Below, piece after piece: positions 35,827 through 46,326 of a DNA stretch of 64,000 nucleotides. Made by a program: the position numbers and the translations under genes. Source of the DNA: an uncultured Eubacterium sp. GTDB lineage: Bacteria > Bacillota > Clostridia > Lachnospirales > Lachnospiraceae. The notes beneath the pieces are model-generated. The model made no database searches. It saw nothing but the letters and a program-made list of their open reading frames with translations, and had not been told where the DNA came from. Each line of letters starts with the position of its first letter. The stretch's first letter is position 1. The stretch lies in contig CANOET010000001.1 of the NCBI GenBank assembly GCA_947564835.1, positions 8,667-72,666 on the forward strand, read 5' to 3'.

Positions 35827-36732
35827 CTATTTTTTCATTTGTTCTGCCCGGATCTTTAACTGCATAGATATTTCCTGACAGGACTTCAGCATACGTGCAG
35901 CCGCAGGTGCCCTGTCTGTGTTTGGATCTGATGAAAAATCAGACATTTCCTTCGCTAGTTTTTCAAACTCCTGATGAATCAAACGCTCGCAGGATAACAC
36001 CTGGGGTCCTCTCTCGCCAAAACTGCTTTCATTTCTCAGAAAACCGGTTATTTTTTTCAATTCATACACTACTTTTTTTAATACTGGGTCATGTTCACTT
36101 TTCGCTTTTTCTAAAAGCTGTTCAAAGTATAGATATACATCCGTTTTCTCTTTCGTATTTTCATTGATATTATTTAATTGAAATATGTTCTCATGCAAAT
36201 GTGTATTTAGAACATCGTCTTTATGATCTATTTTATTGCTTTTCACCAGTTTTTTTTCCGATGCATGCAATCCATAATGTCTTTCATCAGAAAATCCCTC
36301 TAAACATGGTTCAATGATCTTATCCGTGCATACTTCTTTTATTGCCACATCCCAATCGTTCCTTTTGTACATCAGAACAGACTGAATCATATCCAGCCGC
36401 ATTTCAAATCCGTATGTAAGCTTTGCCTGCTCAATATATAGAAGAATGCATTTTTTCTTTATCTTCAGCATATAGTTTAACTCCATCCTGCAAAAGTCTG
36501 ATTTCATATATGCATTGGATAAAAAAGCAATTCCTACCTCTGCCTGCCTTAAATGTTCCGCAATAACTTCCGGAAATTCGCTGCCGATCGGGATTGCGGC
36601 ATCATACCAAAATCTGCATCCGTATCCCGTCATCCATGTCATAATTTTGAACACGGTTCCTTCATCTTCATGACAATAGCTAATAAAACAATATTTTTCG
36701 TTTCCTTCATATGCTGTTGGTTTGTTGGCCAT
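35827..36732 (-). CDS. TIR-domain protein with C-terminal helical bundle
   Basis: AYEGNEKYCFISYCHED, FWYDAAI, FLSNAYMKSDFCRMEL (catalytic-type Glu). Confidence 0.88.
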   Translation of the reverse strand: MANKPTAYEGNEKYCFISYCHEDEGTVFKIMTWMTGYGCRFWYDAAIPIGSEFPEVIAEHLRQAEVGIAFLSNAYMKSDFCRMELNYMLKIKKKCILLYIEQAKLTYGFEMRLDMIQSVLMYKRNDWDVAIKEVCTDKIIEPCLEGFSDERHYGLHASEKKLVKSNKIDHKDDVLNTHLHENIFQLNNINENTKEKTDVYLYFEQLLEKAKSEHDPVLKKVVYELKKITGFLRNESSFGERGPQVLSCERLIHQEFEKLAKEMSDFSSDPNTDRAPAAARMLKSCQEISMQLKIRAEQMKK

Positions 36733-36833
36733 CGATTCATCTCCACATTTGTTCTTCTTTTTCCTGATCTGAGGAACCGGAAATAACTTGTTTTACAGTT
36801 CCTTTGCTTGAAATCTCTTCCTCTAATATATCC

Positions 36834-38009
36834 CTAGATTTGAAAACTGTTTAGCTTCAGTGTTGAACCATCCAGCAAGTAAACAAATGCCGCGGTGTTA
36901 TTTCCATTGTAGCTTTGATTCGTTACTTCTCCGTCCCAATGAGTTACTTCATACAATTCGCTGTAATCATAATTTAGGTTTATATGAATGTAAACCGTGC
37001 CATCATCATTATAATAAGAAGCCTCCGGCTGTATTTCCCCCACCGCCAGGCTGAGTTTCCTTCCGGACTGGATTTGTTGTGCCAGATATAAATAATTACT
37101 TATGACATCTTCTTCAGACTCTGGCAAAATAGAGATTCCTTGTAATCCGGATTCATCTTTATTTTGAAATGCAGCCTTATAGATCTTTTTTAGATCGTCA
37201 GCTGCCTGGGTAACTGCTTCCTGCATGGCTTCCGGCTTTAATTTCATTGCATCTGCACTGCAAGATCCCTCCGACGTATCTACGAGCATCGTAAGGTCTT
37301 CCATGTTCTCTTTTGAGACCGTTACTTCATAGTAACCCTTAAAAATTTGCGGAATCACATATCTTGCATTGCCATACTCTCCTTCCTGTAAATACTCTGC
37401 CTGCAAGTTCACTCCGTCTACCGTTACAGCCGCTCCTTTCGGTACATTTATAATAAAATCTTTGACAATATAATCACTCAGATCCGGCTTCCAGTCATGG
37501 AACAAAAGCAATTTTTTAGAACTGCCCAGATTCACCTGCACCCCATTACGATGGGTTCCGCCTTCCTGATCCGTCAAATGGATCGAAATATAACTGCTGC
37601 CTCTGTCCCGATTGGCAGCTGCTTTGCCAACAAACACTTTATGGTAAAAACCGTCCTCAGAAGAAGGCTCTTCTACCTGATATTCTTTGTAACTCTTTGT
37701 CTGCATTCTCTGCTGGACATTTACAAATGCCTCTTTGCTCATAAATGCATCAACATCACCGGAAAGATCCAGGTCATCATAAATACTGTCATAATCGGCA
37801 TTGATCAGCTTTACGGCATACGCCTTTGCTTCCCGTTCCGGGCTGTACCTTACATAACCTGTATAGATAAACAGGCGCGCAGCCAGAAATGCCAATACCA
37901 TTTGTACAATACAAAGTCTGGCCTTTGATTCCCGGATATATCCCCATACTCTGTTTATAAACCGTTGGATTACTGCCATAACAAATCCTCTCTTCCCATG
38001 TCTATTCAT
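36834..38009 (-). CDS. Membrane-anchored extracytoplasmic protein (TcaA/YvbJ-like, PEGA-like domain)
   Basis: Single N-terminal TM, NVPKGAAVTVDGV...IFKGYYEVTV; likely start 37979. Confidence 0.65.
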   Translation of the reverse strand: MNRHGKRGFVMAVIQRFINRVWGYIRESKARLCIVQMVLAFLAARLFIYTGYVRYSPEREAKAYAVKLINADYDSIYDDLDLSGDVDAFMSKEAFVNVQQRMQTKSYKEYQVEEPSSEDGFYHKVFVGKAAANRDRGSSYISIHLTDQEGGTHRNGVQVNLGSSKKLLLFHDWKPDLSDYIVKDFIINVPKGAAVTVDGVNLQAEYLQEGEYGNARYVIPQIFKGYYEVTVSKENMEDLTMLVDTSEGSCSADAMKLKPEAMQEAVTQAADDLKKIYKAAFQNKDESGLQGISILPESEEDVISNYLYLAQQIQSGRKLSLAVGEIQPEASYYNDDGTVYIHINLNYDYSELYEVTHWDGEVTNQSYNGNNTAAFVYLLDGSTLKLNSFQI

Positions 38010-38637
38010 TTAATTCATTCCGGCGCTGTGCCAGAAGTTCGATATTATCATGCTGCAGTTCTGTCATATAATTTAATGGATTTTCATTCATTTCATCCAC
38101 ATAATATCTGCCTTCGTACCAGTCGAATTGTTCATAGTACGCCCTTTTTTCATCATCACGGAACATACATCCTGTTCGTGCATAAATATAGTTGATCGCA
38201 TCCTGCACTTCTGCCTTCGTTGTCAGGCTTCTGACATCTGCGGCTGTTAATCTTTCTTTGTAGCTGTTCGGAAAAGCAAATTCATCGGCATCCGCTGTAT
38301 TCTCTTCATCCGTACTTTCATCATCTAAAATTTCTTCATCCGTATTTTCTCCATACGAAGCTGTCTGGGTGCTGCCTTTTTTCGTATTATCTGCACTGAC
38401 TTTAAATCCTTTGATCGCAGAATATGTCTGTCCCTCATCTTCGAATCTGGACTCCATTTCGTTTTCCAGCCCCAGATCAGCAGCGCTTTCTATCTGCTTC
38501 CCTTTTGCAGCATTTACCCTTTTCCAAGGCGGTGCTGTCGTAATCCACACGTAGACTGTCAGGAGTACAAACAATGCAATGATAACCGGTAATATTTTAT
38601 TTGCCGTCTCCAATATTTTTTCTTTTTGTTTTTTCAT
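38002..38637 (-). CDS. Membrane-anchored YARHG-domain protein
   Basis: N-terminal TM, acidic linker, AINYIYARTGCMF (YARHG variant). Confidence 0.8.
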   Translation of the reverse strand: MKKQKEKILETANKILPVIIALFVLLTVYVWITTAPPWKRVNAAKGKQIESAADLGLENEMESRFEDEGQTYSAIKGFKVSADNTKKGSTQTASYGENTDEEILDDESTDEENTADADEFAFPNSYKERLTAADVRSLTTKAEVQDAINYIYARTGCMFRDDEKRAYYEQFDWYEGRYYVDEMNENPLNYMTELQHDNIELLAQRRNELNE

Positions 38638-38709
38638 AATTCTCTCCCATATCCTTTCCTTGCAGTAACGATTCATTGCTATACAAAACACACCCATCAA
38701 TCTGCCAAG

Positions 38710-39606
38710 CTACAGTTTTGCTCCGCAATTGCTGCAGAATCTTTGGCCTGGCGCGCAGATAGCATTACAATTGCCGCATATTTTTGAGCCATTGCTTTCT
38801 AATTGACTGCTGCGCAGCATCCGGAGCCCTTTTCCTGCATCCTCAAAGCTTGCATTTTCAGACCGTTTTGCAATCTCTTCAAAAACGGTATAAGAACGGT
38901 TCGTTTCGTAAAAACTGCTCCCCAAAGCCATTTCCTGCTTATACTTTTGAAGCAGCTGGTACTCTTCCTTCGGAGGTGTAATAGACGCTATGTAAAAGTT
39001 CTGTATTTCTACACCAAACCGTTCAAATTCATCGGAAATGGCATCCTGGCATTGTTCCGATAATTCATCCAGCCAGGCGGTAACTTCTAAAAACGATATT
39101 TGTTTCCGTATCATAAATTTAGAAATAACCGTTTTTATTTTCGTTGTAAGCAGCGCACTGAAATAGGTGGCAATCATCGTATAATCAATCGCCGCTCCCT
39201 TTTGCATTGTCCCTGTCAGTTCAGAAACAAACATTTTTGCATTCTGGATTCTCAGACCGTATTTTCCATACGAACGGATGGATAGAATCAGGCCGTATTT
39301 AGGATCTTCTAATTGAAAGGGCGTCTGTGTTCCCCAGTTCATATCTAATTTTGAAGTGATGTTTACAAAATAGATTTCTGCTGAAAACATCTCACCTGTT
39401 CCGGCAGATGTATGATTTGAATAAAGTACATGCGTCCCAGATTGATAGACCTCACAGTTTTTCCTGCCCTGAAATATAAGCACTTCCTGTCCCTGCTTTA
39501 CAACAAGGCGGGTGCCTGGCACAAACTGCTCACCCGGATATTTATAAATAAGCCATGGTTCTCCGTTTTGATTTCCATCAAATTTAATTGTTGTCACATA
39601 TGTCAT
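38710..39606 (-). CDS. SPFH/band-7 (YdjI-like) protein with C-terminal zinc ribbon
   Basis: LVVKQGQEVLIF, AEIYFVN, WGTQTP...DPKY; CGNC...FCSNCG tail. Confidence 0.85.
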   Translation of the reverse strand: MTYVTTIKFDGNQNGEPWLIYKYPGEQFVPGTRLVVKQGQEVLIFQGRKNCEVYQSGTHVLYSNHTSAGTGEMFSAEIYFVNITSKLDMNWGTQTPFQLEDPKYGLILSIRSYGKYGLRIQNAKMFVSELTGTMQKGAAIDYTMIATYFSALLTTKIKTVISKFMIRKQISFLEVTAWLDELSEQCQDAISDEFERFGVEIQNFYIASITPPKEEYQLLQKYKQEMALGSSFYETNRSYTVFEEIAKRSENASFEDAGKGLRMLRSSQLESNGSKICGNCNAICAPGQRFCSNCGAKL

Positions 39607-39891: not shown

Positions 39892-41637
39892 TTAAAACAC
39901 CGCTTCAAATTTCCTCGAAGTCTCTTTCAAAAACTCCACAAATTCCAAAAATTTAAAGTTCTTCGATTTATGAATATACCAATAAATCAAACTCTTATTC
40001 CTATTCTCATATTCAATCATCTTATATACTTTTGAAACCTTACTTATATCTTTATCTTCCTTTAACCGTTCAAACCGAATCTGAAGCCCCTGGCTGCTCA
40101 ATTCATTAATCTTACTTTGAAAAGTCTTTGCCTTCTTATTATACATCTCAAATTTCATACCACGCTGGCCAAAATAGCTCTCCAATTCTTTCAGCCAGAA
40201 TAGCTGCTTTTGCAGTATCCGAATATGATTATCCCTATCCTCCTCATTCATATCCTGATCCCTTTGATTGTTTTCTATTTCTTGCTCAATCTCTTCGATG
40301 CGTTTACTGTTTAATTCGTTGCCGATACTTGTGCCGTTGATCTCTTCGTTATTCGCTCCGAAAATATAATGAAAGCTATCCTGCTGTGACTGCGGGAGCT
40401 GGTCCATTATCATGCGGAATTCTTCTTCGGACTTCCAGATCGGCTGCTTGCGTTTTTTACGTTCTAAGTATTCTTCTACACATCCGTTCGTTTCACTATG
40501 ATCTAACTGTTTCATCAGAAAAAGGCAGTCACCGTCATTCAGCAATTTGATATGCAATCCGTTCGCCGTCCGTACGCCCTGCTGCCCTAATGCATCTCTT
40601 TGAAAGATCCCCTGCTGGCTTTGATCAATTTTAAAATGCTTTTCTATCGCGGCCAGACATTGCTCTACCAGATAAGAATCATAAATAACTACAGGATGCG
40701 CCTGTATCCATCTGCGTTCTGCATCGTAAGACAGGATCACATTATCTATTGTGCTCAATGCGTTTTTCTTATAAGCCAGCGAGTAATTTCCATCTTTCTT
40801 TTTAATAATTGTAACACTCTCCAGCAGTCTTTCTACATCGATTGTTGTGTTGTCAAATCCGGACATTTGCGTATCCCTTATGATGTAATCCAACCGGTCT
40901 ACATCTATAATACTGGAATTAAGCAATTGTATCAATGCATTGCGTACACCTTTTGAAGATACCGATTTTTTCTGATATGTAATTCCTAAGATCGCTCTTG
41001 CAAACAAATCAATATCTACCTGCAGTTCTTTCATAAATGAGATATAGACACTGATTGCAACAATCACGCTCATAATTTCATGCGGTTTTGCCACAACTGC
41101 TTTTCCATCATAATTAACGCTGCCTGAAACTGTATAGGAAAAATCCGTTAAAAAAGCTTCAAACGCTTTTTTATCCAGCATTTCCTGCATGGTCTCAAGC
41201 AGTTGATTATATAACACCTCTATCTCAGGCTGGCTTGTCTGCCCCAATGCTTTCTTCATGATATGGAATGTATCTGCTTCCTTTTGGGTCAGCAAAAAAT
41301 CTTCTCCGCTGTGCGAAAACGGGGTATGTCCAACGTCATGCAATAAACAGGCAATATCAAATGTATTTTGCAAATGACTCCAGGCTGTGTCATCCATTCC
41401 GTGAAAAAGATCGGATGCATTCTTCTTTAGTGCCTTAAACGCTTTATGCCCCAAATAATATACGCCCAGGGAATGTATAAATCGATTATGGCTGGAACCA
41501 GGATATAAACTGTCGTAACTTGTCTGGCGTATATTTCTCAACCGTTGGAACTCAGAAGAGTCCACAATGTTTTTAATATAGGAATCCTTTAACTTGATAT
41601 ACCCATGAACCGGATCTTTTATCAGCTTTGTATCCAT
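39892..41637 (-). CDS. HD-domain phosphohydrolase of the dNTP triphosphohydrolase (SAMHD1/EF1143-like) family
   Basis: IKDPVHG, FQRLRNIRQ, HNRFIHSLG, LLHDVGHTPFSH, DVDRLDYIIRD motifs. Confidence 0.9.
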   Translation of the reverse strand: MDTKLIKDPVHGYIKLKDSYIKNIVDSSEFQRLRNIRQTSYDSLYPGSSHNRFIHSLGVYYLGHKAFKALKKNASDLFHGMDDTAWSHLQNTFDIACLLHDVGHTPFSHSGEDFLLTQKEADTFHIMKKALGQTSQPEIEVLYNQLLETMQEMLDKKAFEAFLTDFSYTVSGSVNYDGKAVVAKPHEIMSVIVAISVYISFMKELQVDIDLFARAILGITYQKKSVSSKGVRNALIQLLNSSIIDVDRLDYIIRDTQMSGFDNTTIDVERLLESVTIIKKKDGNYSLAYKKNALSTIDNVILSYDAERRWIQAHPVVIYDSYLVEQCLAAIEKHFKIDQSQQGIFQRDALGQQGVRTANGLHIKLLNDGDCLFLMKQLDHSETNGCVEEYLERKKRKQPIWKSEEEFRMIMDQLPQSQQDSFHYIFGANNEEINGTSIGNELNSKRIEEIEQEIENNQRDQDMNEEDRDNHIRILQKQLFWLKELESYFGQRGMKFEMYNKKAKTFQSKINELSSQGLQIRFERLKEDKDISKVSKVYKMIEYENRNKSLIYWYIHKSKNFKFLEFVEFLKETSRKFEAVF

Positions 41638-41655: not shown

Positions 41656-42012
41656 CTATAGGCTTATAACTGTCTTTACACTTACGCGGTTAAAAACTTT
41701 CAGCATCGCATAGGAAAGCGTCCATCGGAATTGTTCTTTTAATTTCCGTATGTCAACATTATCTTTCAGGCAGATATACTTTTGATCTTTTTCTTTGATG
41801 TCAAAGTAATCTGAATAATTGATTACCATTCCCTGAATGTCTTCCGGATTGAAAATCAGCACCGCCTCGGTTTTGTTTTCCCTATTATATTGCTCCACTA
41901 CTGACAAACCAAAGTCTGCAAGCTGGGAAAAACTAATTTCCTGAATGCCGTCTTCGTATAATTCGATCAAGGCATTTGCTGCTATACATTCCACTCCGAT
42001 AAAAGTCCGCAT
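41656..42012 (-). CDS. 118-aa hypothetical protein coupled to the HD gene
   Basis: Tight spacing (4 nt after rSAM, 18 nt before HD); IGVECIAANALIE motif. Confidence 0.75.
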   Translation of the reverse strand: MRTFIGVECIAANALIELYEDGIQEISFSQLADFGLSVVEQYNRENKTEAVLIFNPEDIQGMVINYSDYFDIKEKDQKYICLKDNVDIRKLKEQFRWTLSYAMLKVFNRVSVKTVISL

Positions 42013-42016
42013 TTTG

Positions 42017-42910
42017 TTACTCCTCCTTGTTTTCCGTTATTAATTGCCCACAATTCATATGGTCGTTCTTCTTTGCATAGAATACATAACTATTCATACC
42101 TTCCTTCTGCAAAAACTGGTGGAATTTCTCCATTACTTCAATTTCTGCAGGATACAAATGGTTCCTTTTAGAAGCTTCTGTTTCATTTAATTTAGAAATG
42201 CGAATAATGACCTTATCTTTAATATCTTCCATCTTACGTGCAAAATTTTTAAAATCCTGCTGGTCATCATTGATCCCCTTCATTAAGATATAATTAAACC
42301 GGTAATAAGCCTGATGGGATTCTTTCATAAATGCAATCACTTCATCTAATAGATATTCTTTTTGTCGGTAAATCGGTATGATCTCAGACCGCCTTTCATC
42401 AGAGTCTGTAATATATGTTAACTGGACATTTCTAATACGGATCTGGCTGCTTAATAACTCCACTTTCCGCAATAATTCTGCATTCCATAATACAGAAGAC
42501 AACGTTACGCTTACATTCGTATAATCCTTTAATCCTAATAAAAAACGCTCGACATTGTCATAATTGTAGAAAATGTCCCCCATCCCGGTCATTGTTAACA
42601 ATACATATTTATGATCCTTTAAGGTATTTTCTGTGTAAAGATATTCAAATAACTGCATTAATATATCTGCGGTAAAAATATAAAAATTCTTTATTCCGGA
42701 GGTTGCACAAAAACCGCATTTGCTGGGACAGCCATAGCTTTGCGGCAGTTCCAGAACAGATTTGACCAATGTTCCATCCTTATAATGCTCAAAGTAACCC
42801 GCTTCTACATTCCGGCCATCCAGATCTAAAATATATTTCGTTGTTTTTTCAAAATCCCAATTACTTCCTGCATAATCATTCTCTACACAAATTTTTTTAA
42901 TTAATCTCAT
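42017..42910 (-). CDS. RlmN/Cfr-like (class A) radical SAM enzyme lacking the N-terminal domain
   Basis: SYGCPSKCGFC cluster motif, MTGMGD (cf. MGMGE), C-terminal NCGQL (cf. ACGQL). Confidence 0.82.
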   Translation of the reverse strand: MRLIKKICVENDYAGSNWDFEKTTKYILDLDGRNVEAGYFEHYKDGTLVKSVLELPQSYGCPSKCGFCATSGIKNFYIFTADILMQLFEYLYTENTLKDHKYVLLTMTGMGDIFYNYDNVERFLLGLKDYTNVSVTLSSVLWNAELLRKVELLSSQIRIRNVQLTYITDSDERRSEIIPIYRQKEYLLDEVIAFMKESHQAYYRFNYILMKGINDDQQDFKNFARKMEDIKDKVIIRISKLNETEASKRNHLYPAEIEVMEKFHQFLQKEGMNSYVFYAKKNDHMNCGQLITENKEE

Positions 42911-43746
42911 AAACCATCCTCCAGATTTACTGGTTTACAAATATTTTCGTTCTCAATCATTTCTGAGAAATCATTGTCAAAACATCTGGAATAATCTACG
43001 CCTGTTTCCAATTCCAATAAAAAACTGTTTGAGCTGTTTGTCGTACTATAAATATATGGAGAAATAAAACACTTGTGATCTGTTCTTATGTACATATAAG
43101 ATACCTGTTTTAAATCCGTATAAAACACCCGCAGCCTTTTTCTTTTATCTCTGGGCACGCCGCGAAGAATGATCCTCATTTCGTAACAGGTTCTTTCAAC
43201 TTTATTTAAATTCCGTTTCTGATCTTCGTTGCGTTCTGCTGCTTTAATTTTTGAAATATCTGGCTCTTCACCAGATAATATAATTCGTACTGCGTTTCCT
43301 CTTTTTAGTAATTCAGTCACTTTTCCTACAAACAGTGTTCTATATTCGTCGTCAAACCAATTGCTGATAGCATGCCCTATTAAATCTAATTTATTCGACG
43401 ATGATAATAATATATCTTTCCAGAATTTACCATCCCTGTCATAATATGATTTTTTTCGGATACTAACAATTCCGCTGTCATATAGTTCATTTTGAATCCG
43501 CAGCTTTTCATTCATTTCTTTTAAGCGATCTACAATGTCCTTTTGTTCATTCGAGCTAATAGAAAGCTGCAGCACACTGTACAAAATAGATGCAATGATG
43601 GAGCAGAGCACACTAAGTCCGATATTCTGTAATAACCCTGTCATATCAGGCTCGTTTTTATTCAGTTCGTTGGATATTAAAACAAACACAAAAAATCCAC
43701 TAATCCCCAAAAAGACAATATAGCCCCAAATGTATTTCTTTTTCAT
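42907..43746 (-). CDS. 2-TM protein with C-terminal PLD-like (DUF5919-type) domain lacking HKD
   Basis: Two hydrophobic helices, coiled coil, then KLDLIGHAIS...VRIILS...YIRTDHKCFISPY; AGAGGA RBS before ATG 43746 (ORF open to 43830). Confidence 0.65.
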   Translation of the reverse strand: MKKKYIWGYIVFLGISGFFVFVLISNELNKNEPDMTGLLQNIGLSVLCSIIASILYSVLQLSISSNEQKDIVDRLKEMNEKLRIQNELYDSGIVSIRKKSYYDRDGKFWKDILLSSSNKLDLIGHAISNWFDDEYRTLFVGKVTELLKRGNAVRIILSGEEPDISKIKAAERNEDQKRNLNKVERTCYEMRIILRGVPRDKRKRLRVFYTDLKQVSYMYIRTDHKCFISPYIYSTTNSSNSFLLELETGVDYSRCFDNDFSEMIENENICKPVNLEDGL

Positions 43747-43829
43747 TCGTTTTCCTCTAAATCCTTTTTGTGAAATAAAATCTACGTACAAATGACTGTA
43801 ATCCGATCGTTTCAATGTACTGGCCGACA

Positions 43830-43853
43830 TATTTTACAAGCCCTTGTAAAATA
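43830..43853. promoter_or_regulatory. Perfect 11-bp inverted repeat in the leader of the four-gene operon
   Basis: TATTTTACAAG-cc-CTTGTAAAATA. Confidence 0.5.
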
Positions 43854-43895: not shown

Positions 43896-43924
43896 ATTAT
43901 AAAACTCTGCCTATTCTTTGTCAA
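43896..43924 (-). promoter_or_regulatory. Consensus sigma70/SigA promoter of the TM-rSAM-HD operon
   Basis: TTGACA-N17-TATAAT on the minus strand. Confidence 0.8.
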
Positions 43925-44259: not shown

Positions 44260-46326
44260 CTAACTGATTGACGTCCCATTTGGTACGCATTCATCCACAA
44301 ACAGCAGCTCGCAGCCGCAGATACTATTCGTTGCCGCAAGCAGCATCCCATTCGACGTTACGCCGTTGATGCGCGCCGGCTCCAGATTGACAATGACGAC
44401 AATCTTGCGGCCGATCAGCTCTTCCGGTTCGTATTCATCCTTAATGGAAGATACGATCACCCTTTCGCCAAGCCCGTCGTCCAGCGTGATTTTATAGCAA
44501 TGGTTCGACTTGCGGATTTCCTGGCATTTGATGATTTCGCATACGCGCAGATCCATTTTCCGGAACAGCTCAAGCGAAATCTGCTCTTTCAGCGGCTGCA
44601 CCGGATCTGCTTCTTTGCCTTCACAGATTTTTGCTTTATGGACTTTCTTTTTCGCCTTTTCAGCTTCCAGTTCTTCTGCGGCTTTTTTTGCCTCTGCTTC
44701 AAACCGGATTTCTTCTTCTGTCTTCGGATATGAGAAATCCAGCAGCGGCAGATACTGATCCTTTTCAATCGCATACAGGAACAAATACAGCCTCGGGCCT
44801 TTTTCCTTGCCGATTAAAAGCTTGTACACATTTTGGAAAAATGTCCCCTGCAGCTTTTTACGCTCTTTCCCGGTATCTTCCAGCTTGTAAACGTCTACCG
44901 GAATTGCGTAAATCTTCTGGTTTAATTCTTCCAGGTTATAATTTCCTTCCAGAAGATAATCATAAAGATTCTTAATCTCGATTTTTTCTTCCTCAGTAAA
45001 TGTCTCGTAAACATCCCAGTTTCTGTGCTGGCATAAGCGGTTTACATTTTCCGGGCTGCACAGCTCCAGCCAGTTTTGGGCCAGCTCCAGACGGTCCGCA
45101 AAATCCTGTTCTTTATATGGAGTCCCGATCTTTTCGAATACAGTCTCCAGCACCTGCGGATTAAAGTTCACTACGGAACCCAGCTGCACAAGCAGCCCCA
45201 TCGGAACCGTTGATACCGTATGGCCTGCAACCTGGCAATTGTACATAATGGAATTTGTCCTGTCATCCGCATCAGAGGACATAAACTGGTCATACATTTT
45301 ATCAAATTCAAAATACTGCTTTAAGATGCCGTCGTCAAAGCAAAAATCGAAGGAACGGGTCGGTTCTGCTCTGGAATACAGCCAAAGGATTACTTCCGGC
45401 TGATAGATCTTTAACAGTGTTTCCGGCGTCAGATTCAGGCCGGTTGACCCTGACATTTTTCCAGTCGCGCCGCGGAGCCCGATAAATTCATACGCCTGAA
45501 ATACCGGAGGCTCATGGTGGAAAATTTCTCTTGAAATCACGCTGGAAGTATCATAGCTGCCGCCCGGCGCCGCGTGGTCTTTGCCGCCTGGTTCAAAGTC
45601 TACATCTTCATACAGCCACCGCATCGGCCAGTCGATTTTCCATGCCAGCTTGCAGTTATAGTTTGTATTAAAATCAAAGTGGTCTTTATGGCCGCAAGTA
45701 CATTCGTATTCCGCGGTCATATCTTCTTCCCGGAAAGAAATAATCTTTGTCGTGTCCTTTCCGCATTTGGAACAATAGATGGAGACCGGGTAGTAGTTCT
45801 CACGCTCGCCCGGCTTTGCTTCCTGTGTGCGGAAAGAGTCCAGGATATCAAAAATCTTGTGGCGCTCTTTTAACGCCTGCTTGATATACGCAGTATATTT
45901 TCCGGAGCGGTACATGGCAGCCTGATAGCGGTAATCAATCTCGATGCCGAACTTTTGTATGGACTGCATAAATTCCTGTTCAAAATGCTGTGCGTAGGAG
46001 GATTCGCTGTCGCTTGTGAATGGATCTGGTACATCTACATATGGATATCCGATATATTTTTCCATATCCGGGTTTACGTTTGCCACGTTGACCGGTATTT
46101 TGCGCAGACGGTCTAATTCATCCCAGCTATGCATTAACCTGGCTTTTTTCCCGAGCTTGCGTAACGCCAGTACAACAAAATAACTGGTCGCGATATCCCG
46201 GAAGTTGCCGATATGAATAGAACCGGACGGGCTGATTCCGGTTGCACAGACGTATTCTTCTTTGTCCGGCTTTTGTTCGATTATTTTTCTTGCTATCTCT
46301 TCTGACCAATGCATTTTTTTACACAT
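44260..46326 (-). CDS. lysS: Class I lysyl-tRNA synthetase fused to a C-terminal tRNA-binding OB (Trbp111/MetRS-C-like) domain
   Basis: GISPSGSIHIGN, EPGGKDH, GKMSGS motifs; tail MDLRVCEI...NLEPARINGVTSNGMLLAA. Confidence 0.92.
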   Translation of the reverse strand: MCKKMHWSEEIARKIIEQKPDKEEYVCATGISPSGSIHIGNFRDIATSYFVVLALRKLGKKARLMHSWDELDRLRKIPVNVANVNPDMEKYIGYPYVDVPDPFTSDSESSYAQHFEQEFMQSIQKFGIEIDYRYQAAMYRSGKYTAYIKQALKERHKIFDILDSFRTQEAKPGERENYYPVSIYCSKCGKDTTKIISFREEDMTAEYECTCGHKDHFDFNTNYNCKLAWKIDWPMRWLYEDVDFEPGGKDHAAPGGSYDTSSVISREIFHHEPPVFQAYEFIGLRGATGKMSGSTGLNLTPETLLKIYQPEVILWLYSRAEPTRSFDFCFDDGILKQYFEFDKMYDQFMSSDADDRTNSIMYNCQVAGHTVSTVPMGLLVQLGSVVNFNPQVLETVFEKIGTPYKEQDFADRLELAQNWLELCSPENVNRLCQHRNWDVYETFTEEEKIEIKNLYDYLLEGNYNLEELNQKIYAIPVDVYKLEDTGKERKKLQGTFFQNVYKLLIGKEKGPRLYLFLYAIEKDQYLPLLDFSYPKTEEEIRFEAEAKKAAEELEAEKAKKKVHKAKICEGKEADPVQPLKEQISLELFRKMDLRVCEIIKCQEIRKSNHCYKITLDDGLGERVIVSSIKDEYEPEELIGRKIVVIVNLEPARINGVTSNGMLLAATNSICGCELLFVDECVPNGTSIS

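Follow-up and report, generated by a model that had tools for sequence, protein, structure and literature searches.

A RlmN-like radical SAM enzyme with a carboxylate at the resolving-cysteine position and its four-gene operon in an uncultured Eubacterium

RlmN and Cfr are class-A radical S-adenosylmethionine (SAM) methyl synthases: RlmN methylates C2 of A2503 in 23S rRNA and of A37 in tRNA (PDB IDs: 3RFA, 5HR7 and 6FZ6), and Cfr, known from antibiotic resistance, methylates C8 of A2503. The methyl group is carried by a cysteine of the enzyme itself, Cys355 in RlmN and C338 in Cfr. Here we describe a relative of these enzymes encoded in a 64,000-nucleotide stretch of DNA from an uncultured Eubacterium sp. 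of the Lachnospiraceae (NCBI GenBank assembly GCA_947564835.1, contig CANOET010000001.1, positions 8,667 to 72,666 of the forward strand). The whole of this stretch is referred to as the window, and its positions are counted from its first letter. The enzyme has a glutamate at the position of the second catalytic cysteine of RlmN, and its gene lies in an operon with those of a protein with two transmembrane (TM) helices, a protein of 118 amino acids and an HD-type deoxynucleoside triphosphate (dNTP) triphosphohydrolase.

Two kinds of immune systems are useful for comparison. Viperin and the pVips are radical SAM enzymes that act on a free nucleotide in antiviral immunity and, to our knowledge, they are the only established precedent for such a role; viperin dehydrates CTP and does not employ methyl-cysteine chemistry. 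In Thoeris, a constant enzyme, the TIR protein ThsB, is combined with interchangeable effectors that sense a small molecule, either ThsA with its SIR2 and SLOG domains or, in type II, a Macro-domain effector with two TM helices.

The chemistry of RlmN and Cfr depends on a second cysteine, C118 in RlmN and C105 in Cfr, which is indispensable for resolving the cross-link between protein and RNA, as summarised in a 2022 review of radical SAM methylases (PMC9692996). Since 2014, this residue has been viewed as a general base that deprotonates C2 or C8 and so leads to radical fragmentation, not as a disulphide partner; in the complex of RlmN with tRNA, C118 is directed straight at C2, and the Cys355 thiyl radical is afterwards reduced by an unidentified source (PMC9692996).

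The gene of the enzyme and the codons of its key residues are located in the window as follows, with the basis of each assignment in brackets.

42017..42910, minus strand: radical SAM enzyme of the RlmN/Cfr type without the N-terminal domain, 297 amino acids (open reading frame (ORF), hidden Markov model (HMM) matches, alignment, AlphaFold2 fold)
42707..42730, minus strand: CxxxCxxC cluster motif, C61/C65/C68 in CPSKCGFC (invariant in every alignment)
42749..42751, minus strand: Glu54 codon GAA, in the column of RlmN Cys118, within VLELPQSYGC (alignments and codon check)
42050..42052, minus strand: Cys287 codon in NCGQL, counterpart of the methyl-carrier Cys355 of RlmN (invariant, together with true RlmN)
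42785..42787, minus strand: His42 codon in EHY, a candidate second catalytic residue (near-invariant in the Glu/Asp clade described below, not in RlmN)

The first-pass annotation of this locus, made from the letters of the DNA, had described an RlmN-like enzyme with a rewired active site. Its reading of the motifs proved correct: a codon-by-codon check (C61 at 42728-42730, C68 at 42707-42709) and the alignments agree that the cluster motif and the methyl-carrier cysteine C287 are kept, as is the glutamate of the VE motif (E36 in VEAGYF, the counterpart of RlmN Glu105), and that D112 lies in GMGD where RlmN reads GMGE. The spacing from E54 to the first cluster cysteine is seven residues, equal to that from C118 to C125 in E. 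coli RlmN. Only five cysteines are present in the enzyme (8, 61, 65, 68 and 287), four of which are conserved in the family, and the core residues for SAM and the cluster, as well as the CGQL cysteine, are aligned identically in all family members and true RlmN. The enzyme thus has in common with RlmN the radical SAM fold with its beta-extension, the CxxxCxxC, GxGE/D and ribose motifs, and the C-terminal CGQL loop; it shares the class-A mechanism and the motif set with Cfr as well.

Profile searches place the protein near RlmN and yet outside it. Pfam Radical_SAM matches it with 32 bits, and the nearest NCBIfam model is that of RlmN, TIGR00048 (E 2e-20), with 73 bits against a cut-off of 290 bits; the Cfr models give 47-51 bits against cut-offs of 468-550. 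The TIGR00048 match begins at model position 79 of 355, and PF21016, the N-terminal domain, is found on the true RlmN matches and on no member of the family, which bears out the earlier observation that the N-terminal RNA-binding extension is missing. The AlphaFold2 model of the enzyme has a predicted local distance difference test score (pLDDT) of 95, and its top fold matches in the PDB are the RlmN structures 6fz6, 5hr7 and 3rfa (E 4e-16 to 2e-14), far above other radical SAM enzymes. In view of the HMM E-value, the pLDDT and the fold matches, the resemblance to RlmN is not due to chance. Of the features that define RlmN/Cfr-type class-A enzymes, the window enzyme possesses CxxxCxxC in a radical SAM fold and the methyl-carrier cysteine, and is without the resolving cysteine, the PF21016 domain and a score above the curated cut-off. 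The differences from RlmN are considerable: RlmN has an HhH-type RNA-binding N-domain, Cys118 and a basic catalytic domain, whereas the window enzyme has no such domain, a glutamate, and an acidic catalytic domain (net charge -5, pI 5.8). For the two subfamilies introduced below, the catalytic domain has a mean net charge of -0.9 (Glu subfamily) and -2.3 (Asp subfamily), compared with +9.6 for the matching region of true RlmN. Cfr, in contrast, keeps both the resolving cysteine C105 and the N-terminal domain, and no resistance context was seen at the window locus.

Homologues were collected by a word-indexed search and then by an exhaustive profile search of 1.84 billion representatives. The former yielded about 80 clusters of homologues of 290-315 amino acids, with scores falling from 182 to 85 bits to the nearest RlmN-type matches, and the latter 107 proteins at E < 1e-30. 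Neither MAFFT nor profile alignments contain a gap from position -8 to the CxxxCxxC motif. In the column of Cys118, cysteine is present in true RlmN and in short relatives that retain it, and Glu or Asp in every family member, which verifies the claim that a glutamate, E54, occupies the place of the resolving cysteine. Among the listed matches aligned to the family profile, the residue is Glu in a closer subfamily and Asp in a remoter one, and the cluster motif and the methyl-carrier cysteine are invariant across both.

The first-pass annotation had proposed an alignment and a tree with RlmN as a check of this substitution. In a maximum-likelihood tree of 136 near-full-length domains, rooted on true RlmN, a single clade with support of 0.996 comprises 112 representatives, 87 with Glu and 25 with Asp; no Cys was seen at the resolving position in any of the 112. 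This clade sits inside a grade of short clades that are likewise devoid of the N-terminal domain and still have the cysteine. Such topology implies that the N-terminal domain was lost first and was followed by a single, retained exchange of Cys for a carboxylate. Judging from the sequences, the exchange is a trait of a monophyletic clade and not of a lone mutant.

Two ways around this assignment were considered and rejected. A HMMER pairwise alignment to 6fz6 introduces a 4-residue gap that moves the RlmN cysteine onto Lys50; all multiple and profile alignments are free of gaps there, and the pairwise gap was discarded because the nearest Cys-retaining clades also carry their cysteine on the Glu/Asp column. 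Alternatively, another cysteine of the enzyme or of its partner might do the resolving, but the alignments contain no other conserved Cys in the Glu subfamily, the Asp subfamily or the partner, and hence no conserved candidate.

Since C118 is now viewed as a general base, a carboxylate is plausible as the resolving base. By this analogy, the rewired site most likely contains a swapped general base and the enzyme retains turnover, rather than being a dead-end trap.

The enzyme gene is the second of four co-oriented and tightly packed genes, the other parts of the operon being the following.

42907..43830, minus strand: two-TM partner with a C-terminal dead phospholipase D (PLD)/TrmB-like domain (ORF, AlphaFold2, Foldseek)
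41656..42012, minus strand: 118-amino-acid protein, always between the radical SAM and HD genes, starting 4 nucleotides past the radical SAM stop (ORF)
39892..41637, minus strand: SAMHD1/EF1143-type HD dNTP triphosphohydrolase of 581 amino acids with a long C-terminal extension (Pfam HD, motifs, PDB matches)
43896..43924, minus strand: predicted sigma-70-type promoter TTGACA-17-TATAAT ahead of the operon (consensus scan, 12/12)

The stop of the partner gene overlaps the start of the radical SAM gene by 4 nucleotides; a gap of 4 nucleotides separates the latter from the 118-amino-acid gene, and one of 18 nucleotides follows before the HD gene. The local GC content is 0.34, compared with about 0.45 in the flanks. 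Contigs from gut libraries labelled RNA-Seq, one library being labelled metatranscriptomic, match at least 99%, cover all four genes and bridge the gene junctions. This is consistent with all four genes being on one transcript in vivo, although RNA-labelled libraries can contain DNA.

The ORF of the partner, with up to 307 amino acids, may be longer than the protein: the true start is probably the ATG at 43746 (279 amino acids), behind AGAGGA, and homologues have 275-300 amino acids and no Pfam domain. Hydrophobic stretches span residues 5-28 and 37-64. The AlphaFold2 model (pLDDT 87) has two TM helices, a long helix and a C-terminal alpha/beta domain, for which Foldseek returned the effector-binding domain of TrmB/TrmBL2, the FAM83 pseudo-PLD, NucT, Zucchini and PLD3/4 (E 1e-6 to 1e-3). 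The domain has the PLD fold and is without the catalytic HxK(x)4D motif: it reads GH(A/S)IS with no Lys, and in distant members the His is replaced by R, K, N, T or Y. Conservation is mainly of aromatic residues, together with a small-residue motif in the second TM helix. An active PLD nuclease or lipase was consequently rejected, since there is no HxK motif and the His is not conserved. The best matches, to the TrmB effector-binding domain and FAM83 DUF1669 (E 1e-6 to 2e-5), include the long helix and likewise have no HxK; TrmB differs in that a DNA-binding domain is attached to it, whereas the partner has two TM helices, and no sequence similarity to either of them was detected (no Pfam match). 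From the model, the partner is a membrane protein with a non-catalytic domain, probably of the ligand-binding type, its soluble part comprising about residues 90-279. In the Asp subfamily, a two-TM protein of roughly 210-290 amino acids is encoded directly downstream of the enzyme (upstream in one locus). It is homologous to the window partner (hhalign 98.7%, E 3.5e-16), which makes the enzyme-partner pair ancestral to the whole clade.

The HD protein retains H55, H100-D101 and D245xDRxDY, and matches 2o6i (EF1143, E 3e-26) and SAMHD1 (E ~1e-17) in the PDB; with the metal-binding motifs and homology to solved dNTPases, it belongs to the SAMHD1/EF1143 type. It falls well short of the cut-off of the anti-phage dGTPase model NF041026 (28.6 bits against 400), and the PADLOC dGTPase model matches only its N-terminal 90 residues, with 40.7 bits. 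The H..HD..D motifs are common to SAMHD1, EF1143 and the defence dGTPases, and other loci of the family carry the PADLOC dCTPase; the defence dGTPase, however, stands alone, whereas the HD gene here is co-inherited with the radical SAM pair and the 118-amino-acid protein and has an extra C-terminal region. Searches of Pfam, PADLOC, PHROGs and the PDB gave no match for the 118-amino-acid protein. Its family comprises 53 clusters of 53-94% identity, which share their contigs with the cassette.

To describe the module, 25 loci of the Glu type were examined, 18 intact ones from genomes and seven from metagenomes. A search of one genome for each of 185,579 species gave 19 loci, and the genome loci come from Lachnospiraceae, Oscillospiraceae, other Clostridia, a metagenome-assembled genome (MAG) of Bacilli and an alphaproteobacterium. 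The partner is adjacent or fused to the enzyme in 22 of the 25 loci, while the HD protein is present in 11 and the 118-amino-acid protein in eight; the HD gene is either downstream together with the 118-amino-acid gene or, in three loci, upstream as a longer HD protein. Partner and enzyme form a single polypeptide of 583-609 amino acids in six genome loci, and many further fusions of the two occur among the representatives from the profile search; one natural fusion is the 585-amino-acid protein of Sellimonas intestinalis (L005, 7131-8888). The order of the four genes persists down to 39% enzyme identity (L030). The surroundings vary from genome to genome and include polysaccharide and flagellin-glycosylation regions, and the cassette is flanked by integrases, resolvases/recombinases, type I restriction-modification systems, HNH and RelB. 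The patchy spread, low GC content and varying contexts mark the module as accessory and horizontally mobile. Searches of IMG/VR (by pattern), of 50,697 phage records and of 72,556 plasmids gave no member of the Glu/Asp family; the 'phage' matches that were inspected (22-27%) are full-length canonical RlmN with Cys on unverified faecal scaffolds.

Two copies of the pair (L011 and L018) were noted on the 6.35-Mb contig AQFT02000001.1 of Eubacterium plexicaudatum ASF492. The second, near the other end of the contig, is decayed to ORF fragments and has the same flanking gene families as the intact copy. Either the island was duplicated and one copy has degraded, or the two ends of a circular chromosome overlap in the assembly.

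Genes for nucleotide-handling and defence proteins recur around the relatives. In L015, the gene of a dCTP deaminase of the defence type (PADLOC dCTPase, 386 bits) overlaps the enzyme stop. L014 has two DCD genes in tandem immediately upstream of the enzyme, L006 has a nucleotide cyclase gene upstream of it, and in L035 an SLOG gene follows the enzyme-partner pair. Remote members have an N-terminal fusion to MazG pyrophosphohydrolase or, in the Asp type, a C-terminal fusion to a ThsA-like SIR2-STALD/SLOG module (PADLOC ThsA, 89 bits). The short Cys-retaining sister clades adjoin HD, NUDIX, deoxynucleoside kinase and DUF7768 genes, which suggests that the move to such contexts predates the exchange of Cys for a carboxylate. 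Examples are L028 (1523-2386), beside NUDIX and deoxynucleoside kinase genes, and L049 (2357-3301), which immediately follows an HD gene and is itself followed by a DUF7768 gene.

Several of these loci are of interest by themselves. The Asp-type fusions of radical SAM, SIR2 and SLOG/STALD are proteins of about 800 amino acids (P0287, P0300, P0307, P0309, L045 4091-6499 and L046 390-2804), and this architecture is not mentioned in the literature searched. In L032 (4560-9928), a gene for a Lamassu LmuB-like ATPase (PADLOC, 138 bits) overlaps the start of that for a 606-amino-acid fusion of MazG, linker and radical SAM domain, which is followed by a 691-amino-acid protein with matches to effectors of the PNP superfamily; a second PNP-domain gene is near. 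Possibly, this is a Lamassu-like variant in which the radical SAM domain is employed. In L022 (1582-5967), a QueC-like gene, an N6/N4 methyltransferase gene, a radical SAM gene and an unknown gene lie upstream of the pair, and large unknown proteins of 691, 366 (ParA-like, weak), 747 and more than 2100 amino acids are encoded downstream; the locus has the appearance of a densely packed defence island that holds other uncharacterised systems as well. A link between L022 and L032 through their downstream proteins of 691 amino acids was dismissed, as the two are unrelated.

As for the flanks of the operon in the window, a lysyl-tRNA-synthetase-like gene of 688 amino acids with a C-terminal extension (44260-46326) lies directly upstream and has a counterpart of 94% identity at the same position in L001 (4563-6617), a Lachnospiraceae MAG that is 85% identical. 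Two strong promoter-like sites (44077-44049 and 43924-43896) lie between this gene and the operon. On the other side adjoins an operon of SPFH, YARHG, 391-amino-acid and TIR genes (35827-39606), which is syntenic in L001 (11292-15096); there the 391-amino-acid and TIR genes match in several pieces, suggesting frameshifts or assembly errors in that MAG. The TIR gene (35827-36732) is part of this separate neighbouring operon.

From these results, an interpretation of the system may be put forward, which we hold at about even probability: the enzyme would be a methyl synthase directed at a nucleotide, with a carboxylate as its resolving base, and would form the core of a conflict system not described so far, most likely an anti-phage one. 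The defence role is read from the genomic context, and substrate and product are inferences. The loss of the RNA-binding domain, the loss of positive charge, and the nucleotide enzymes among the neighbours and fusion partners together make a free nucleotide the most economical candidate substrate. The first-pass annotation had expected a different substrate or chemistry; as regards the substrate, this expectation is supported indirectly by the same three observations, while the persistent covalent adduct that it also envisaged is not, as discussed below. That annotation had considered the gene by itself, not as the constant part of a conserved module of the defence type.

By analogy with the ping-pong radical mechanism of RlmN, a first SAM would methylate Cys287, and a second SAM would be cleaved at the C61/C65/C68 cluster to a 5'-deoxyadenosyl radical, which would take a hydrogen from methyl-Cys287. 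The resulting methylene radical may add to an sp2 carbon of the purine, C2 or C8 of adenine, in a free nucleotide instead of RNA. Glu54 would then pull the ring proton, whereby the enzyme-substrate adduct would be resolved, and the Cys287 thiyl radical would be re-reduced. In the version we favour, the C-methylated nucleotide would be a signal read by the ligand-binding domain of the partner, the latter acting as a membrane effector; in the SIR2-SLOG fusions, SLOG might sense the signal, and the HD dNTPase could possibly do so at its allosteric sites. Such a role is favoured because the enzyme is constant while the modules with sensing domains (two-TM TrmB-like, SIR2-SLOG) vary and the HD dNTPase comes and goes. 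Alternatively, the product could be a poison nucleotide, the effect of which would be sharpened by dNTP depletion through weaker competition from normal dNTPs. A more specific proposal is tentative, and we consider it possible rather than probable. In it, the class-A methyl synthase, whose chemistry is hitherto known only from rRNA/tRNA modification and Cfr resistance, is the signal maker of a new family of immune pathways, and infection would lead to a C-methylated adenine nucleotide of the ATP, dATP, NAD or ADP-ribose type that acts on the two-TM effector by way of its dead-PLD/TrmB-like sensor domain, on SLOG and perhaps on the dNTPase.

A number of observations weigh against a nucleotide-directed methyl synthase of a conflict system. 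The association with nucleotide enzymes could reflect crowding of defence islands or co-effectors, and signalling systems do not usually have the enzyme fused to its supposed receptor, as is frequent here. The place of the L032 enzyme beside a Lamassu-type ATPase would suit an effector role. PLD folds can bind nucleic acids, and the partner might supply an RNA or DNA substrate. Three loci (L006, L013 and L014) have no partner, and one of these, L013 (7028-8921, an Oscillospiraceae MAG), looks housekeeping-like, with the enzyme after a U32-peptidase-like gene and before nusA; it is the odd one among the 25. Finally, neither the enzyme nor the partner is represented by a PADLOC model, so the defence function rests on context.

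The comparison with known systems points to both parallels and differences. Neither PADLOC nor PHROGs has a match for the enzyme, the partner or the 118-amino-acid protein, and a known defence system was discarded on this account; the full-text literature searched contains no description of the enzyme family or the module, the candidate papers mentioning unrelated radical SAM enzymes. The proposed action of a radical SAM enzyme on a free nucleotide in antiviral immunity is that of viperin, which, however, belongs to another radical SAM subfamily: it appears at Foldseek rank 24 with E 5e-4, compared with 4e-16 for RlmN. The window enzyme is not a pVip, a type marked by the radical SAM fold of viperin and a nucleotide-binding extension at the C-terminus, as it has no PADLOC match and viperin structures only at rank 24 or lower, and we know of no pVips with a two-TM pseudo-PLD partner. 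With Thoeris, the module shares the logic of a constant enzyme with interchangeable effectors that sense small molecules, and the usual partner of the radical SAM enzyme is also a two-TM protein with a domain of the ligand-binding type. The four operon genes, nevertheless, encode no TIR, SIR2, SLOG or Macro domain; ThsB is a TIR protein whereas the enzyme here is a radical SAM one, and the ThsA-like fusions are confined to remote relatives.

The alternative that survives best, although we consider it unlikely, is a nucleic-acid-directed enzyme. The PLD domain of the partner would present RNA or DNA, either of the phage or, in abortive infection, host tRNA or rRNA, and adenine would be C-methylated in the polymer, blocking its use. 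The known substrates of class-A enzymes are RNA adenines only (PMC9692996). Nucleic acids are bound by several relatives with the PLD fold, for example NucT, Zucchini and PLD3/4; the obligatory pairing or fusion with the partner suits substrate delivery, and the membrane anchor would put the enzyme at the site of phage DNA entry. The catalytic domain, however, is without the positive charge of RlmN, the best folds of the partner are ligand-binding domains or pseudo-enzymes, and its conserved residues are aromatic, not basic. Moreover, remote relatives swap the partner for SIR2-SLOG or add MazG, both nucleotide-handling modules, and the sister clades lie beside NUDIX, deoxynucleoside kinase and HD genes.

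It is improbable that the enzyme is a metabolic one which, alongside dNTP-processing enzymes, supplies the cell with a methylated nucleotide by synthesis or salvage, for instance by methylating a pyrimidine or purine nucleotide. The repeated dCTP deaminase/DCD, HD, NUDIX and deoxynucleoside kinase neighbours would agree with such a function, but the sporadic distribution, the low-GC locus and the varying genomic contexts would not, and the obligatory two-TM partner, the ThsA-like and Lamassu-type links, and the restriction-modification, toxin-antitoxin and recombinase neighbours are hallmarks of conflict systems.

A suicide trap, in which the adduct is never resolved and each enzyme molecule becomes permanently linked to its substrate, is quite improbable as well, and the persistent covalent adduct envisaged by the first-pass annotation is not favoured. 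The C118A variant of RlmN does accumulate such a cross-link (PMC9692996), the structure 5hr7 is among the fold matches, and the enzyme has no other conserved Cys. On the other hand, 112 of 112 clade members have strictly kept Glu or Asp in spite of their deep divergence, a pattern characteristic of a functional general base, and C118 itself is now thought to be a base (PMC9692996). A stoichiometric trap would also be a weak strategy for an enzyme of low expression, as indicated by the low contig depth in the RNA libraries.

A housekeeping RlmN/Cfr paralogue that methylates A2503 or A37 is hardly credible: one database record (P0070) does name a family member RlmN, and the fold and core motifs are RlmN-like, but the scores of 73 bits against 290 for RlmN and 47-51 against 468-550 for Cfr, the absence of the N-terminal domain and Cys118, the rare and patchy occurrence, and the embedding of this accessory gene in an operon of four that also encodes a membrane protein and a dNTPase all speak against it.

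What is new about this class-A methyl synthase is its swapped catalytic base, its partner and the biological setting in which it occurs, and the entire system has a fair chance of being an immune pathway of a new type. The Glu/Asp clade makes the debate on the second cysteine, base or disulphide partner, directly testable; if the proposed chemistry is true, the clade would show, by nature's own example, that the role of the 'resolving cysteine' in RlmN is that of a base and not of a disulphide partner. The clade also predicts a class-A enzyme that works on a substrate other than RNA. Should the nucleotide-directed methyl synthase indeed serve defence, it would be the second radical SAM chemistry recruited to immunity, after viperin, in an immune module that brings a new type of membrane partner and links to dNTP-depleting enzymes and to ThsA-like and Lamassu-like modules. 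If its product is a C-methylated purine nucleotide, this would be a new signalling or antiviral small molecule. The module is small, with two to four genes, and common in Clostridia of the rodent and human gut, which makes it experimentally tractable.

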